The translations under genes and the position numbers were made by a program. Positions 1,962-10,596 of a DNA stretch of 11,520 nt are shown one piece after another. The DNA is taken from positions 1 to 11,520 of the forward strand of contig JABCSY010000119.1 of the NCBI GenBank assembly GCA_018238625.1, written 5' to 3'. Source of the DNA: Promethearchaeota archaeon. GTDB lineage: Archaea; Asgardarchaeota; Lokiarchaeia; Sigyniarchaeales; SOKP01. Under the pieces are notes generated by a model that did no database searches, was not told where the DNA came from, and was given only the letters and a program-made list of their open reading frames with translations. Numbering within the stretch: position 1 is the stretch's first letter; the number at the start of each line of letters is the position of its first letter.

Positions 1962-2609
1962 TTAAAGATTTTGATAGTACAAACAATTTTCAGATAAGGG
2001 ACAAAGCTCGCATTTAGGATTATTTTTCGAGCAGATTTTGTTTCCAAAATCAAGAATCGCCCAATACATGTGTTTACAACCCGTCTTAGGCAATAAACGA
2101 TCTAAATTTGCGTGAATAACTTCATTTTTTACTTTTGAGTTTGAAGGTTCGAACGCTCTCGAAACAAACCTTTTAATATTTACATCAACAAAAAAGGTTC
2201 TTCTGTCTAATCCAAAACACAAAAAGGCGTTGCTTACATAATCGGCAATTCCGTTGATTTTTTTAAGTATTTCAGGATCGAGAGGGATTTCTCCGTTATA
2301 TTCCGTTAATACCATCGCACTTAAGTCTTTCAAAGTTTTAGCGCGTTTGTTGGATAGCCCTAAAATTTCAATATCTGATTGTAGCTGATTAATTTTAGCC
2401 TTGGAAATGTCGGCAAAGCCTTTATATTTTGCAAAAAAATCGTTATACATATTAGAAACGTTTATAGCGATAGTTTTCTGTAGTAAAATTTCTACTACCA
2501 ATACTTGATATAGGTTTTTTGATTTTCTCCAAGGGAAATCGCGTTTGTTTTCGCTGTACCAATCTAAAATTTTATTTCTAATTGAGATATAGTTATCTTC
2601 TTTATCCAT
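1962..2609 (-). CDS. mig: HhH-GPD DNA glycosylase, MIG-like (T:G/U:G mismatch glycosylase) with a [4Fe-4S] cluster
   Basis: RDFPWR; EILLQKT (catalytic Glu); GLSNKRA (Mig.MthI has GLSNQRA, as recalled); HhH GIADY with Tyr at the Nth lyase-Lys position; catalytic VDVN; FeS motif CSKNNPKCELCPLSENC. At 215 aa it lacks the MutY C-terminal domain. It sits next to a C5-MTase. Confidence 0.8.
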   Translation of the reverse strand: MDKEDNYISIRNKILDWYSENKRDFPWRKSKNLYQVLVVEILLQKTIAINVSNMYNDFFAKYKGFADISKAKINQLQSDIEILGLSNKRAKTLKDLSAMVLTEYNGEIPLDPEILKKINGIADYVSNAFLCFGLDRRTFFVDVNIKRFVSRAFEPSNSKVKNEVIHANLDRLLPKTGCKHMYWAILDFGNKICSKNNPKCELCPLSENCLYYQNL

Positions 2610-2711
2610 TTCTTATCTATTTTTAATCGTTATTGTTATTAATTAAGTATTAGTTAGATTTTATTCTTATTATTGATTTTTTCATTTAGTACTGATTCTT
2701 CTAATATTAAA

Positions 2712-3848
2712 ATGCCGGAAAAAAATAATATCATTATAGATCTGTTTTGTGGAGCTGGAGGTTTATCGCTAGGTTTTGAAATGGCAAATTTTAAAATTGA
2801 TTTAGCGATAGAATTAGAAGAAAATTATTATAGAGCGTATAAAGGAAATCATCCTGAAACTTTATCACTAAATAAAGATATAACCAATTTAAATTGCAAA
2901 GATATCTCTAATAAATACCTTAAAAACAAAGAAATAGAGGGGATAATTGGCGGACCTCCATGTATCGGATTTTCTACGGTTGGAAATAGAAGACCAGACG
3001 ACCCTCGTAATACGCTGATCTTTTATTTTATTCAATGGATTGAACACTTTAAACCGAAATTTTTCGTTATGGAAAACGTTCCTGGAATTCTCTCTATGGG
3101 GAATGGTAAAGTGGTAGAAAAAGTTTTCAATTTGTACAAAGAAATAGGTTATGCTTGTAAGATGGAAACATTATTAGCAGCCGATTACGGAGTCCCACAA
3201 TTGCGGCAGAGAGTATTTTTTATAGGAACCCAAAGTAATTCGGTGTCTTCGTTAAAAATCCAAAAAACTAACGAAAACAATAGTGAAGAGAAATCAGATT
3301 TAGGGAAAAATGCGTTACCTCCTTATTTGACCGTTCAAGACGCAATTTCCGATATTATTATTATAGAGCCTTTTATAAAAAAGCGCACGGATGATATGAT
3401 TAAAAAGTATTCTCACCAACCTAAAACGCAATATCAAAAATATCTAAGAAAAAATTCAACTGGATTATTCGATCATTTTGCCCCAAATCACAGCGAATTA
3501 GTAATGAAAAGGATTTCTCACATTGATCAAGGTAAGAACCATAGTTCTTTGCCGAAGGAATACCAACTTAAAGGAGGATATCCTAATATATACGGTAGGC
3601 TTCATTTAAATAAACCAGCTGATACTATTACGGGAAATTGTGGTTGTGTGAGCGCCCCAGGTAGATTTATCCATCCTACGCAAAACAGAGCGATTTCCGT
3701 TAGAGAAGCCGCGCGATTGCAGTCTTTCCCGGACAATTATAGGTTTTGTGGAAGTATGAGAGATAAGTACAAGCAAGTTGGAAACGCAGTACCACCATTA
3801 ATGGCTTACGCCGTTGCGAAATCAATCGATCAATTATTAAAAATTTAA
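2712..3848 (+). CDS. DNA (cytosine-5)-methyltransferase, orphan within this window
   Basis: Conserved C5-MTase motifs in order: I DLFCGAGG, IV GGPPCIGFS, VI ENVPG, VIII QLRQRVFF, variable TRD, IX RAISVREAARLQSFPD, X QVGNAVPP. ATG at 2712 is preferred over the track's TTG at 2673 because motif I normally sits near the N-terminus. Confidence 0.95.
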   Translation: MPEKNNIIIDLFCGAGGLSLGFEMANFKIDLAIELEENYYRAYKGNHPETLSLNKDITNLNCKDISNKYLKNKEIEGIIGGPPCIGFSTVGNRRPDDPRNTLIFYFIQWIEHFKPKFFVMENVPGILSMGNGKVVEKVFNLYKEIGYACKMETLLAADYGVPQLRQRVFFIGTQSNSVSSLKIQKTNENNSEEKSDLGKNALPPYLTVQDAISDIIIIEPFIKKRTDDMIKKYSHQPKTQYQKYLRKNSTGLFDHFAPNHSELVMKRISHIDQGKNHSSLPKEYQLKGGYPNIYGRLHLNKPADTITGNCGCVSAPGRFIHPTQNRAISVREAARLQSFPDNYRFCGSMRDKYKQVGNAVPPLMAYAVAKSIDQLLKI

Positions 3849-3885: not shown

Positions 3886-4425
3886 TTATTCTTTAGATGC
3901 TTTATACATCTCTAATGCTAATTTAGTAAAAACATCGTCAATTTTAGTCCCAAGTTTCGCGCTTGTTTCATAATATTCGTAAGCAGTCAATACTTGTTTG
4001 AGATTATTAGTATCGTCCAATTTAATAATCCTAGCTTCGTGATCTATCAAATCAAGCTTGTTCCCTACTAAAATATTTGGTTGTACGCCGATTTTACTCT
4101 CAACTTCTTCTTTCCATGTTAACAAATTATTAAACGTTTCTTTACGCGTTAAGTCGAATGTATACACAATTCCTTTCGCGCCTTTATAAAACGCGTATCT
4201 AACCCATCTAAAATAGGCTTGTCCAGCTAAATCCCATATCTGGAGGGTCAATAAGTGCTCTGTTTCGGGAAGTTTAATATATTTCACAAAAAAGTTAGAA
4301 CCGATCGTTCTTTGGGCGTTAGGGATAAATCTTCTCTTTAGATATTGATTTAACATAGTAGTTTTACCTACTTCAGAGTCCCCGACAATACACACTTTAA
4401 AAAATAACTTGTTGTAGCCAACCAT
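3886..4425 (-). CDS. Rab-like small GTPase (Ras superfamily; eukaryotic signature protein)
   Basis: G1 GDSEVGKT, G2 TIGSNF, G3 WDLAGQ, G4 NKLD, G5 ETSAK. Rab-like LQIWD and FYKGAKG segments. Ends ...MYKASKE with no hypervariable tail or Cys prenylation motif. Confidence 0.93.
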   Translation of the reverse strand: MVGYNKLFFKVCIVGDSEVGKTTMLNQYLKRRFIPNAQRTIGSNFFVKYIKLPETEHLLTLQIWDLAGQAYFRWVRYAFYKGAKGIVYTFDLTRKETFNNLLTWKEEVESKIGVQPNILVGNKLDLIDHEARIIKLDDTNNLKQVLTAYEYYETSAKLGTKIDDVFTKLALEMYKASKE

Positions 4426-4433
4426 TTTTGGTT

Positions 4434-4502
4434 TGCTTAAATATTACTTAAATATGCCTAATTTTAATTGTGATATAAAGTTTATAATTTTATATTTAAG
4501 CA
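4434..4502. promoter_or_regulatory. Symmetric divergent promoter region with repeated ATATTTAAG elements
   Basis: CTTAAATAT occurs directly repeated at 4436-4444 and 4447-4455. TGCTTAAATAT (4434-4444) is a perfect 11-bp inverted repeat of ATATTTAAGCA (4492-4502). The minus-strand copy at 4455-4447 lies 22-30 nt before the GTPase ATG, which is archaeal TATA-box spacing. Confidence 0.5.
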
Positions 4503-4576
4503 TAAATTTATTCTAAGAGTAAGTTATTCTTTTAAAAAAAATAAAGAAATAAATCAACAAACTTGGACTGTTTAAC

Positions 4577-5764
4577 ATGACTAAGGATTTAAAAGATTTA
4601 ATAGATATGGCTGAAGAAGACGAGAAAACTCGAGCCCAATTGGAAGAAAGCGTTGAAACTCTAAAGCGTGAGATCGTTAAGTTAAATAAAAAATTAGAAG
4701 AGAAAACATCTTTAACCAAAATTGATTCTGTAAAGCCAATTGAAGATTTTAATGAATCTGAAGAAATAAATATTTTAAAAGGTTTAATCGCTTCACAGAA
4801 GCAAGAGCTAGCAGATAAAATTCGTGATACAGAAGTTCTACAACAGAAAATGGAAGAAGCAAACCTCGAATTAGAAAACATTAGAGATACATTTACTGAT
4901 TCTGTTAAAGACCAAGTTTTAATAAAAACTCAAAATTCGCTTAATAACCTGATTGAAGATTACGGGAGACTAGAGGGTACTATTAAATCGTTAAACGAAA
5001 AAATCTCTGAATTAGAGAAAGAAAACAAACGACTGGCTGAAAGCTCAACTGACTTAAAATCTGAAAGCTCTAATGTGGAACAATTGGAAGCAAAAATATA
5101 CGGGCTAAAAAGACAACTAAAGGATTTTGAAAGAAGCAAAAAATTACTCGAAGAAAACATTAATACCTTAAAAAGCAAGCAAAGCTCTGTTGAGGAATTA
5201 GAGAACAGAAATATAGAATTAAAAGAAGAAAAACAACAATTAAAAGAAGATTTAAAAGCCGCAAAGACCGACCTATTTAAATTTTCCAAAAAAGAAGAGA
5301 AAGTATCCGAATTAAAGAATAAAATCGAAGAGCTAGAAAAAGCTAACAAAAATCTTAAAGAAAAAGATACGCTTTTGCTAGCTAAAACTATTACTGCGAT
5401 AAACGTGCCAAAAAGAGAGCACGCACCAGTTTTAAAAGATACGCCATTAAAAACAGAAAAAGTTTTAAAAGTTGATTCAGAAGTAAAGCAAGAAAAACCG
5501 CAAGAACAAACAAAAGATTTACCGCAAAAGTTAGAAATAAACTTAGAACCAACTTCAGAAACTAAAGAAATATTGAATGAGAACGAAATACCAATTGCTC
5601 CTTCTGAAGTTCCAGTTACTCGCAAAAAAAAGTGTCCAAAATGTGGAAATACTAATAAATCGCAAATTCGAGAAGTCGACGATAAAACCAGAATAATATA
5701 TACCTACCCAAAGATATACGCTAAAATGTATAAATGCGGTCAATGCGGAGCGGAATGGCGATAA
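4577..5764 (+). CDS. Long coiled-coil protein with P/E/K-rich linker and C-terminal C4 zinc ribbon
   Basis: Residues ~1-270 are E/K/L-rich heptads. Residues ~275-350 are Pro-containing low complexity. The C-terminus is C353-x2-C356-x30-C387-x2-C390-GAEWR. No P-loop and no TM segment. Confidence 0.85.
   Translation: MTKDLKDLIDMAEEDEKTRAQLEESVETLKREIVKLNKKLEEKTSLTKIDSVKPIEDFNESEEINILKGLIASQKQELADKIRDTEVLQQKMEEANLELENIRDTFTDSVKDQVLIKTQNSLNNLIEDYGRLEGTIKSLNEKISELEKENKRLAESSTDLKSESSNVEQLEAKIYGLKRQLKDFERSKKLLEENINTLKSKQSSVEELENRNIELKEEKQQLKEDLKAAKTDLFKFSKKEEKVSELKNKIEELEKANKNLKEKDTLLLAKTITAINVPKREHAPVLKDTPLKTEKVLKVDSEVKQEKPQEQTKDLPQKLEINLEPTSETKEILNENEIPIAPSEVPVTRKKKCPKCGNTNKSQIREVDDKTRIIYTYPKIYAKMYKCGQCGAEWR
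4940..5395 (+). repeat. Four tandem 38-aa (114-nt) coiled-coil quasi-repeats
   Basis: Units start at 4940 (LNNLIEDYGRLEGTIKSL), 5054 (LKSESSNVEQLEAKIYGL), 5168 (LKSKQSSVEELENRNIEL) and 5282 (FSKKEEKVSELKNKIEEL). Hydrophobic residues align at positions 1, 8, 11, 18 and 25 in all four units. Confidence 0.65.
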
Positions 5765-8256: not shown

Positions 8257-10596
8257 ATGAAACAAAAAGTAATTAGGCAATCTCATGAAATTTGTATCGA
8301 GAGAGCTATGTTAATTACGGAATCCTATAGAAAAACAAAAAGAGAGTTTCCTGTAATTCGATTTGCAAAAGCTATCAGCCATATCTTGCAAAATATGACG
8401 ATTAAAATCTGGGACGATGAAGTAATTGTAGGTAACCGGTGTTCAAAATTAGTAGGGACCCCATTATATCCTGAAATTAGAGTGGATACTTTAGAGCAAG
8501 ATTGTGACTCTTACGATTCACGTTTAGTCCAACCACTTTTCTTGTCCGATGAAGATAGACAAATTTTAAAGGAAGATATCATTCCGTATTGGAAACATGA
8601 GGATCAAACAGTTCAAGATAGGTATTATGGTTATTTGAATGATGATGAAAAAGCCATTCGGGAAAAATTATTATTTATTGGGGATGCGGAACTTACGAAT
8701 GGTATCGGTCATTTTTTCCCAGGTCACGAAAATGTTTTAAAGTATGGAATCAACGGTTTAATCCAAAAATCTAAAGAAAAATTAAATGGTTTAGTTGAAT
8801 TAAAATCAGAAGAAATTGATAAAAAAATGTTTTTTGAATCCATTATTATAGTATGTAATGGAATAAAAGAATTCATTAAGAGGTTTTCAAAATTAGCTAA
8901 TACCTTAGCAACAAATGAGCCAAATCTAGAACGCCAAAGAGAACTTCTGGAAATTTCTGAAGTATGTTATAATATCTCCGAATATCCGCCAAATTCGTTT
9001 AATGAAGCATTACAACTCATTTATTTTACTCATATAATATGTTGTTTAGAGGATGGTGGTTTCGCAATAAGTATAGGGCGTTTAGATCAATATTTATATC
9101 CATACTATAACAAAGATAAGATGGAGGGGAAAATATCGCCCGAAAAAGCTCAGTTTTTAATTGAAGGTTTTTACATAAAACTTGCAAGCTTATGGAACTA
9201 TCTGCCTACTCAAGGCATTGTAGCTTCAGAAGGGCCACCAATTGCCGCAAATGTAACTATCGGGGGGCTTGATTGTAATGGAAAAGATGTAACAAATGAG
9301 TTGACTTTTATATTATTAGACGCATACACCAATCTTAAGACCGTACAACCTACATTTTCTATTAGAATCCATAAGAACACACCTGAAGATTTGCTTGTTA
9401 GAGTTACTGAAAGCATAAAATCAGGTACCAGTATTGCTTTATTTAACGATGATGTAATAATTAGCGGACTTATAAATCGTGGTTTTACTCTTGAGGATGC
9501 TCGAGAATATGCCTTGGTGGGATGTGTGGAACCACAACATCCACATAAATCATTTGGGTCAACCAATTCGAATCAAATAAATATTGTAAAATGTTTAGAA
9601 TTGGCACTTAACTCGGGAATCGACATGTTTACTAGAAGGGAATATGGAGTAACTAAGGAAACAAAAATTACATCTTATGAAGATTTATGGGATGCTTTTG
9701 CAAAAGAAATGAAATATTTCATTAAACATATGGTTTCAATGATGAACTCTCTTGATAAAGCAACGGCTGAACTTGCTCCACAGCCATTCTTATCTGCAAT
9801 TACTGACGATTGTATTGAAAAAGCACTAGATATTACAAAAGGAGGTGCTATTTACAACTTTACTGGGCCCCAGTTAATTGGTTTAGCTACAGTAGCAGAT
9901 AGCCTTGCTGTAATTAAGAAGCTAATATTTGAAGAAAAAACTCTTCCTTTTGGAGTATTAGTTGAAATGCTTAAAAAAAATTACAGAGGGTCTTTTCAAG
10001 GAAAAAAAGGAGAGGAATGGAGGAAAATCTTTATTAATAAAGTTCCAAAATTTGGAAACGATAATGATTTTGTTGATTCAATCGCGGCAGACGTAGTAAA
10101 ATTATATTGCGATGAAATTTCGAAGTATGAAAATTATCGTGGAGGAAAATTCAATCCTGGACTTTATTCGACTTCTTTTCACCTAGCATTGGGTTTTTTT
10201 ACAGCGGCATCAGCTAATGGTAGAAAATCAAGAGAAACCCTCTCTAATGGTGTTGGTCCTACTCATGGTAATGATAAGAACGGTCCTACTGCCATTCTTA
10301 ATTCAGTTAAGAAACTAAACAACGAATTATTAACTAATGGTAATTCTCTAATTTTAGCATTTCATCCAAATACAATAAAGCCTGATATTTTTATACCTAT
10401 GATTCGATCATTTTTTGTACCTCACGGTGGTCTACAAGTACAATTTAACGTTGTTGGCAAAGATATTCTATGTAATGCTCAAGAACATCCTGATAATTAC
10501 CGCGGGCTAGTCGTAAGGATTGCGGGTTATTCAGTTTTATTTACAGAACTATCTAAAAACGCCCAAGATGAAATTATTGCTCGAACTCAATTTTGA
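8257..10596 (+). CDS. Glycyl-radical enzyme, PFL2/glycerol-dehydratase-like family, substrate unknown
   Basis: Cys loop GCVEP; glycyl-radical motif LVVRIAGYS; ICIERA; GRLDQYLYPYY; NVTIGG; PKFGND; SANGRK; QVQFNVV. The true start may be upstream, at about 8206. Confidence 0.93.
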   Translation: MKQKVIRQSHEICIERAMLITESYRKTKREFPVIRFAKAISHILQNMTIKIWDDEVIVGNRCSKLVGTPLYPEIRVDTLEQDCDSYDSRLVQPLFLSDEDRQILKEDIIPYWKHEDQTVQDRYYGYLNDDEKAIREKLLFIGDAELTNGIGHFFPGHENVLKYGINGLIQKSKEKLNGLVELKSEEIDKKMFFESIIIVCNGIKEFIKRFSKLANTLATNEPNLERQRELLEISEVCYNISEYPPNSFNEALQLIYFTHIICCLEDGGFAISIGRLDQYLYPYYNKDKMEGKISPEKAQFLIEGFYIKLASLWNYLPTQGIVASEGPPIAANVTIGGLDCNGKDVTNELTFILLDAYTNLKTVQPTFSIRIHKNTPEDLLVRVTESIKSGTSIALFNDDVIISGLINRGFTLEDAREYALVGCVEPQHPHKSFGSTNSNQINIVKCLELALNSGIDMFTRREYGVTKETKITSYEDLWDAFAKEMKYFIKHMVSMMNSLDKATAELAPQPFLSAITDDCIEKALDITKGGAIYNFTGPQLIGLATVADSLAVIKKLIFEEKTLPFGVLVEMLKKNYRGSFQGKKGEEWRKIFINKVPKFGNDNDFVDSIAADVVKLYCDEISKYENYRGGKFNPGLYSTSFHLALGFFTAASANGRKSRETLSNGVGPTHGNDKNGPTAILNSVKKLNNELLTNGNSLILAFHPNTIKPDIFIPMIRSFFVPHGGLQVQFNVVGKDILCNAQEHPDNYRGLVVRIAGYSVLFTELSKNAQDEIIARTQF

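Follow-up and report, generated by a model that had tools for sequence, protein, structure and literature searches.

EEA1, the golgins and rabaptin are built as long coiled coils that carry a small targeting module at one end. A locus that is alike in plan, with a long predicted coiled coil, a small end module and a Rab-like switch encoded alongside, is found in a lokiarchaeial genome (Promethearchaeota archaeon, assembly GCA_018238625.1; order Sigyniarchaeales), on a contig of 11,520 bp (JABCSY010000119.1, C118 in our numbering) that was analysed over its entire length and is referred to here as the window. On this contig the gene for a Rab-like small GTPase lies head-to-head with the gene for a helical protein that ends in a zinc ribbon, hereafter the rod protein. 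The likeness to EEA1, golgins and rabaptin is one of plan only, as the rod protein bears no sequence or profile similarity to FYVE, GRIP, C2H2 or Rab-binding domains and its zinc ribbon belongs to another fold class. An earlier note on this DNA had put the pair forward as a candidate primordial GTPase-effector module. The comparisons reported here lead us to favour, on balance and with modest confidence, a different account, namely two separately functioning genes in an inherited, lineage-limited neighbourhood that does not amount to a demonstrated module.

The closest solved relative of the GTPase is a Thorarchaeota Rab (7ezb, E=3.6e-31; PMC10933270), which aligns over residues 9-178 and agrees with it in the G motifs and in having a Rab-type switch II; the next matches are the eukaryotic proteins Rab7, Rab2, Rab14 and Rab23, with Rab1 after them. 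The Thorarchaeota protein comes from a different Asgard lineage, and the GTPase described here is known from its sequence. For the zinc module the nearest described counterpart is the end of the Lokiarchaeota two-domain gelsolin (Loki2DGel; 7whg), whose 'Zn domain' has a (CxxC)2 pattern and an extended loop bearing a conserved Tyr (Akil et al. 2022, PMC9433394). According to the available portion of that paper, the domain is carried by Loki 2DGels and by unrelated multi-domain proteins, in both 'exclusively at the C-termini', occurs also as small stand-alone proteins and is not consistently detectable outside Loki; it showed no F-actin binding in the authors' assay, and their suggestion is that it 'likely' binds a cellular feature or complex (PMC9433394). 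The C-terminal 48 residues of the rod protein are homologous to this domain, with the same (CxxC)2, the same long Tyr loop and the same C-terminal place after a flexible linker, but the cargo differs, being a helical rod of ~270 residues here and two gelsolin repeats in the gelsolin. The same portion of the paper names 'unrelated multi-domain proteins' and mentions neither a rod-Zn architecture nor a GTPase neighbour (PMC9433394).

Pairs such as MglA-MglB and the Rag-like/roadblock genes likewise place a small Ras-like GTPase beside a candidate partner (PMC10933270, available portion), but the partner here is without a roadblock, longin or V4R domain. In one clade of relatives the same GTPase instead has a V4R-like protein and an Arf-like fusion protein directly upstream of it. 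In the archaeon MK-D1, a small GTPase gene does not as a rule share an operon with genes for roadblock, longin or TRAPPC3 proteins (Tran et al. 2024, PMC10933270, available portion). No description of the present pair was found among the papers listed for Asgard small GTPases, Rabs and coiled-coil effectors or tethers.

The features of the locus are as follows.

3886..4425, minus strand: Rab-like small GTPase, an open reading frame (ORF) of 179 aa (Pfam Ras 6.1e-38, motifs, C-termini compared)
4360-4383, minus strand: G1 motif, G15..G20-K21-T22 (sequence and alignment, as for all five motifs)
4306-4308, minus strand: G2 motif, T40
4219-4233, minus strand: G3 motif, D65-x-x-G68-Q69 (DxxGQ)
4051-4062, minus strand: G4 motif, N122-K123-x-D125 (NKxD)
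3955-3963, minus strand: G5 motif, S155-A-K157 (SAK)
4426..4576, no strand: divergent intergenic spacer, AT-rich, 151 bp (read from the sequence)
4577..5764, plus strand: coiled-coil, linker and Zn-domain protein (the rod protein), an ORF of 395 aa
4583..5401, plus strand: predicted helical rod (AlphaFold2 model, column conservation in 28 orthologues)
5402..5620, plus strand: predicted disordered linker, residues 276-348 (low model confidence, 30-49 on the predicted local distance difference test, pLDDT, and low column identity)
5621..5761, plus strand: C-terminal Loki Zn domain, a putative CxxC...CxxC zinc ribbon, residues 349-395 (phmmer match to 7whg_G)

Both ORFs are genuine genes, with open-frame orthologues in dozens of related genomes, and the coordinates of the divergent pair and its 151-bp spacer agree with those in the earlier note. 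The distribution of the pair was followed through 42 genomes of the genus (G000-G024, G041-G056 and G062). In a tree of 62 sequences, 38 GTPase orthologues form one clade (100/98) apart from the nearest paralogue group, and a 39th, in G046, is truncated where its contig stops; G010 (86% complete), G012 (82%; paralogue-clade sequences only) and G062 (92%; best match 45% identical) yielded no orthologue. The rod protein, searched for with residues 1-280, is present in 36 of 41 genus genomes plus G062 and was not found in G003 (81%), G006 (98%), G010, G012 or G049 (70%). Thus 36 of the 42 genomes have both genes, three have the GTPase only, one has the rod protein only and two have neither; the single-gene genomes include G006, with the GTPase only, and G062, with the rod protein only.

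Where both genes occur, their arrangement varies. They are head-to-head in 19 of the 36 genomes (including the window and G046, the latter left out of the spacer measurements), in tandem on one strand in two (directly adjoining in G041 and with an F420H2-reductase-like gene between them in G048), 4.8 kb apart in G052, and unlinked in 14, on separate contigs and with the partner not within the ~6-kb flanks where contigs allow. The synteny check suggested in the earlier note thus comes out divided, with the genes adjacent in 21 of 36 genomes, unlinked in 14 and some 5 kb apart in one. Each arrangement corresponds to one clade on the GTPase tree. On the rod-protein tree, read with a sister-genus sequence as root and with one long-branch row omitted, the unlinked (100/99), head-to-head (92/93) and tandem (100/100) genomes again form clades, although the base is unresolved. 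Since both gene trees gather each arrangement into one clade, the 21 adjacent genomes represent two or three evolutionary observations, not 21. The separated genes stay open-framed, at 56-64% identity for the GTPase and 38-44% for the rod protein.

In the unlinked genomes each gene has settings of its own. In seven of them the genes that precede the GTPase encode an unknown protein, an Arf-like fusion protein and a V4R-like one; the GTPase gene is head-to-head with a block of beta-eliminating lyase, M19 dipeptidase, NUDIX and TGT-like genes in six, and lies beside a cupin gene in three. A smaller second Zn-domain gene is found 2-4 kb from the rod gene in nine of ten loci. This second gene (L037, L039-L046) encodes a coiled coil of 150-175 aa and has its window-genome orthologue on another contig (C43, 47457-47933). 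In the sister genus no adjacency of the pair was seen: G061 (99% complete) has a GTPase of 59% identity and yielded no rod protein, while G057 has a full-length rod-Zn protein of 35% identity, with the GTPase absent from its 1.5-kb flanks and no GTPase orthologue. The GTPase orthogroup is confined to one genus, possibly also the sister genus, and no full-length rod protein was found beyond the family to which the window belongs.

Adjacency to a small GTPase gene is itself common in this genome. Ras-like GTPases number 43 strong and 98 total matches (jackhmmer), and 1.9-4.1% of ORFs of at least 120 aa sit no more than 300 bp from such a gene, in line with the caution of the earlier note that adjacency alone is weak evidence where small GTPases are so numerous. 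One of the nine Zn-domain genes, the one in this pair, lies within 300 bp of a GTPase gene; measured against the background this is no enrichment (P=0.16-0.31). Among 14 other Zn loci with 1.5-kb flanks a GTPase occurs in one, with an intervening gene present. The adjacency of the pair is not beyond chance, and the neighbourhood is real but ordinary. Two further lines were pursued and rejected. The Zn-domain gene on C43 that lies 796 bp from a GTPase gene does not count as a second instance, as a gene lies between them and the two are convergent, and the mirror-tree correlation of GTPase and rod protein (r=0.88, 28 genomes) carries no control for shared species history. Complex prediction, run with two copies of rod residues 1-280, the Zn domain (340-395), the GTPase and GTP, returned two ipSAE values, both 0.01 where the mark is 0.32, in a run without controls; it speaks neither for nor against binding.

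The GTPase itself is well defined. It matches Pfam Ras with 130.4 bits (E=6.1e-38, cut-off 21.6) and NCBIfam small_GTP with 72.1 bits (cut-off 42.5), while its Roc, Arf and Gtr1/RagA matches are weaker (Pfam Arf 41 bits against 130 for Ras). In an alignment of 53 rows comprising orthologues and close paralogues, residues G15, G20, K21, T22, T40, D65, G68, Q69, N122, K123, D125, S155 and K157 are invariant, which supports the earlier description of G1-G5 as intact, catalytic Gln included. Among its 60 best matches in the PDB nearly every chain is a Rab, Ypt or Sec4, and by these best matches, as opposed to a phylogeny, the protein appears nearer to Rabs than to Ras, Rho, Arf or Ran. The chain terminates a few residues past the last helix, without a hypervariable tail; the last ten residues lack Cys in 37 of 38 orthologues, and a C-terminal Cys motif occurs in none of the 38, in agreement with the absence of a lipidation tail noted earlier. 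The protein is thus Rab-like and without a lipid tail, and because it has no C-terminal prenylatable Cys motif it is, where prenylation is the criterion, not a bona fide Rab.

The rod protein has the anatomy first ascribed to it, a rod of ~270 aa, a flexible linker and a terminal C4 zinc module, as both its model and its invariant cysteines support. The AlphaFold2 model, built with 28 orthologues, places helices at residues 3-46 and 62-275 with pLDDT mostly above 90 and a break at residues 47-61, predicts disorder in the 73-residue linker (276-348, pLDDT below 50) and folds residues 349-395 as a beta-hairpin zinc ribbon. Conservation follows the same outline: the best-conserved blocks are residues 1-35, 60-70 and 108-135 together with 349-395, the linker is the least conserved (mean column identity 0.32-0.39, as against 0.5-0.85 elsewhere in the 28 orthologues), and C353, C356, C387 and C390 are invariant among orthologues. 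The rod protein probably dimerises as a coiled coil. It matches no Pfam or NCBIfam family at cut-off, and a Pfam and NCBIfam scan for Rab-binding or membrane-targeting domains (FYVE, GRIP, RBD and the like) gave none at E<=0.01. Its relatives fall into 113 clusters at 90% identity, none of them named beyond 'hypothetical' or automatic coiled-coil names, and where labelled they come from Lokiarchaeota or Promethearchaeota. The same genome also encodes a paralogue of 469 aa (C95:27171-28580) whose N-terminal 260 residues are 27-33% identical to the rod and which ends in HEAT repeats (Pfam HEAT_2 3.9e-10) in place of the linker and Zn domain; this HEAT-ended paralogue occurs throughout the genus.

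Because residues 348-395 are homologous to residues 286-333 of the Lokiarchaeota gelsolin 2DGel (7whg_G, phmmer E=1.2e-9), the zinc module is identified as the known Zn domain of that protein rather than a new effector domain. A profile of 23 copies, including gelsolin-borne ones of this genome and its relatives, shows E366, D369, P378 and Y381 conserved in the long hairpin loop, P378 and Y381 in at least 90% of rows. The ribbon is modelled at a pLDDT of about 90, and its four Cys together with this model suggest that it binds zinc. Its top-ranked structural neighbours are RPA12, TFIIS, Rpb9 and NrdR, none of them a significant match (Foldseek E=0.26-1, VIA Z<=3.4); the search gave no Foldseek match at E<=0.001 and a VIA-wide best Z of 3.4, and Pfam Zn_ribbon_TFIIS (PF01096) matches at E=0.0024 with 18.1 bits, under the cut-off of 21. 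As modelled, the ribbon would resemble zinc ribbons only generically. 'Domain X' of Thor 1DGelX was considered as an equivalent module and rejected, as the available part of its source describes it as a coiled coil, not a zinc ribbon (PMC7444086).

The domain is widely used in this genome and its relatives. Nine Zn-domain ORFs are present in the genome, including the rod protein; the others encode a 343-aa protein with two gelsolin repeats, coiled coils of 158, 287 and 307 aa, proteins of 178 and 111 aa, and stand-alone proteins of 62 and 49 aa. The 343-aa protein (C148:62368-63399; Pfam Gelsolin 8.9e-25) is the counterpart of the published Loki2DGel, and the 111-aa ORF lies 4 kb from its gene on the opposite strand. 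Among 1.84 billion cluster representatives the profile recovers 445 at E<=0.001. In the 150 of these that were listed, the domain reaches the C-terminus or stops a few residues short of it, 17 proteins are no longer than 100 aa and nine exceed 450 aa; no Pfam family is assigned at E<=1e-5 in 138, while gelsolin is found in three and Ras, TPR, LRR and GFO_IDH_MocA in one each. The Zn domain is thus a promiscuous C-terminal tail, shared by gelsolins, coiled coils, TPR and LRR proteins and stand-alone mini-proteins. Across a sample of the phylum, 5-11 strong copies occur in every one of the 18 genomes from the window's order, and only 34 of 103 genomes outside the order have a single weak match, so that the multi-copy Zn domain is found only in this order. 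Because the full-length rod family and the multi-copy Zn domain are thus confined to one family and one order of Lokiarchaeia, respectively, the epithet 'primordial' given to the pair in the earlier note is not supported.

On the account that we favour, of two separately functioning genes, the GTPase would be a soluble Rab-like switch without a lipid anchor and one of about 40-100 small GTPases in the genome, and the rod protein would be a scaffold or tether, probably dimeric. It has ~270 helical residues, and its long helix, if a coiled coil, would span roughly 30 nm; a flexible linker of ~70 residues and the Loki-specific Zn domain at the C-terminus follow. The Zn ribbon would dock the rod to a cellular partner common to gelsolin, other coiled coils, TPR and LRR proteins, while the rod and its conserved polar patches (1-35 and 108-135) may hold or space something else. 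The analysis shows the anatomy of the genes, the families to which they belong, where they occur and how they are arranged; we infer that the rod dimerises, that the Zn domain acts in docking and that coupling to the GTPase is not obligatory.

Several observations weigh against this account. Within the head-to-head clade the pair is constant while its flanks vary, the Dcm methylase gene being present, absent or 4 kb away, with a 4-kb insertion and other downstream genes in places; a short shared promoter region, which is a small target for breakpoints, could explain such persistence, and selection for co-regulation possibly could too. Proximity is also retained in separate clades that differ in arrangement (head-to-head, tandem without an intervening gene, and tandem with one), which hints that the ancestor of the genus already had this neighbourhood and that a single loss followed. 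Both genes are missing from G010 and G012 (86% and 82% complete), and the polar patches on the rod at residues 1-35 and 108-135 are strongly conserved. Coiled-coil-like neighbours occupy four of 64 slots beside small GTPases where 0.85 are expected (P=0.01), in a crude composition screen that includes the pair that prompted it; this enrichment was set aside, as the other three neighbours are acidic low-complexity, short helical and TPR proteins, not long rods. Finally, two database proteins (P0033 and P0054) join a degenerate Ras-like domain, a linker and a Loki Zn domain. Of these, P0033 is known from one sequence, on a contig of 2.2 kb, and its P-loop, DxxGQ and NKxD motifs are degenerate, while P0054 matches weakly (E=9e-6); as Rosetta-stone evidence such fusions were rejected, since they are too few and degenerate and the Zn domain is promiscuous.

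The most serious competitor, though an unlikely one, is a switch-effector pair, in which the GTP-bound GTPase would bind the dimeric rod (the N-terminus and the conserved block 108-135 being candidate sites) and the Zn-anchored rod would localise the GTPase or be recruited by it, in the manner of eukaryotic coiled-coil Rab effectors. Adjacency in 21 of 36 genomes, in two orientations and despite changes in the flanks, speaks for such a pair, but the genes are unlinked in 14 of the 36 and each state is a single clade; their joint absence from two genomes fits it as well, but single-gene genomes occur in both directions. It would suit a GTPase without a membrane anchor of its own and a rod with conserved surface blocks, yet the rod has no homology to a known GTPase-binding domain and adjacency to GTPase genes is common in this genome. 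That partners of Asgard small GTPases are largely unknown, and that operon layout is uninformative in MK-D1 (PMC10933270, available portion), leaves such a pair some room.

Co-regulation without binding is a more doubtful possibility. Here a shared bidirectional promoter would serve two genes of the same process, for example cytoskeleton or cell shape together with the gelsolin Zn-domain proteins. The spacer presumably carries the promoters of both genes, is held at 143-200 bp in 18 head-to-head loci and contains TA-rich blocks that are conserved inside sub-clades, and the Zn domain ties the rod protein to the gelsolin family; the pair is nevertheless split in 14 of 36 genomes, and in archaea, with their compact genomes, divergent genes often have a spacer in common but no common function. 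A search for sequencing runs that contain the locus listed 20 of DNA type and none of RNA. It seems improbable to a slightly greater degree that the Zn domain is a protein address tag that docks gelsolin, rods, TPR, LRR and GTPase-like domains on one hub, where the rod would position the tail-less GTPase and provide lipid-free localisation and a coupling to actin. Very unlikely is a nucleic-acid or chromatin coiled coil, like an SMC or Rad50 arm, whose ribbon would bind DNA, RNA or RNA polymerase and which would be unrelated to GTPase signalling, for while the structural neighbours of the ribbon (RPA12, TFIIS, Rpb9, NrdR), its Zn_ribbon_TFIIS match (E=0.0024), its basic character as judged from sequence, the SMC, Rad50 and ASRP coiled-coil matches below threshold and the adjoining Dcm and HhH-GPD repair genes point that way, the matches are all sub-threshold (Foldseek E>=0.26, VIA Z<=3.4, Pfam 18.1 bits against 21), the rod protein is without an ATPase head, the same domain tails actin-binding gelsolins and the repair genes are inconstant neighbours.

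The genes surrounding the pair complete the picture of the locus. An HhH-GPD glycosylase-like gene (1962-2609, minus strand) is head-to-head with a C5 cytosine DNA methylase gene, Dcm (2673-3848, plus strand; Pfam 1.1e-72); some relatives have the methylase, others have it displaced or lack it (loci L050, L051 and L053 are without it), and the glycosylase keeps its place beside the GTPase. Positions 763-1086 encode a Cys-rich 107-aa protein with a double zinc ribbon and a RING-H2-like finger (Pfam zf-RING_2 25.6 bits, slightly under the cut-off of 27.3), which is kept in several relatives at 57-85% identity. A PFL-like glycyl-radical enzyme gene occupies 8257-10596 (Pfam 1.5e-197), and the window holds no activase gene. 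In the close relative L048 a Na/Ca exchanger gene and a membrane protein gene adjoin directly, and because these flanking genes adjoin without it the PFL-like gene is read as an insertion or deletion. No Rfam family or tRNA was found in the window by either scan, and the contig belongs to a genome of 4.29 Mb in 201 contigs.

Elsewhere in these genomes the orthologous GTPase has other company. A conserved cluster (L088, L089, L091, L096 and L102-L104) encodes an unknown protein of 465-475 aa with a zinc ribbon at its C-terminus, a protein of 346 aa whose last part is an Arf-like GTPase domain and a V4R-like protein of 198 aa (27 bits, cut-off 31), with a Gtr1/RagA-like GTPase fusion and a vWA-RING protein nearby. 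In seven relatives the Rab-like GTPase orthologue lies directly downstream of this cluster; in the window's genome the cluster is at C58:29510-32865 without a Rab-like gene.

Asgard genomes hold dozens of Ras-superfamily GTPases with almost no known partners, and gene order seldom helps to find them (PMC10933270, available portion). A conserved GTPase-rod pair would be a rare lead; the data give something weaker, a neighbourhood that part of a single genus retains. Of more use is a by-product, the placing of the rod protein in the Loki Zn-domain family, whose tail is common to the actin-regulating gelsolins. The docking partner of the Zn domain is the real question, and its identity would explain the positioning of many Lokiarchaeial proteins as well as any role that a small GTPase may have in it.

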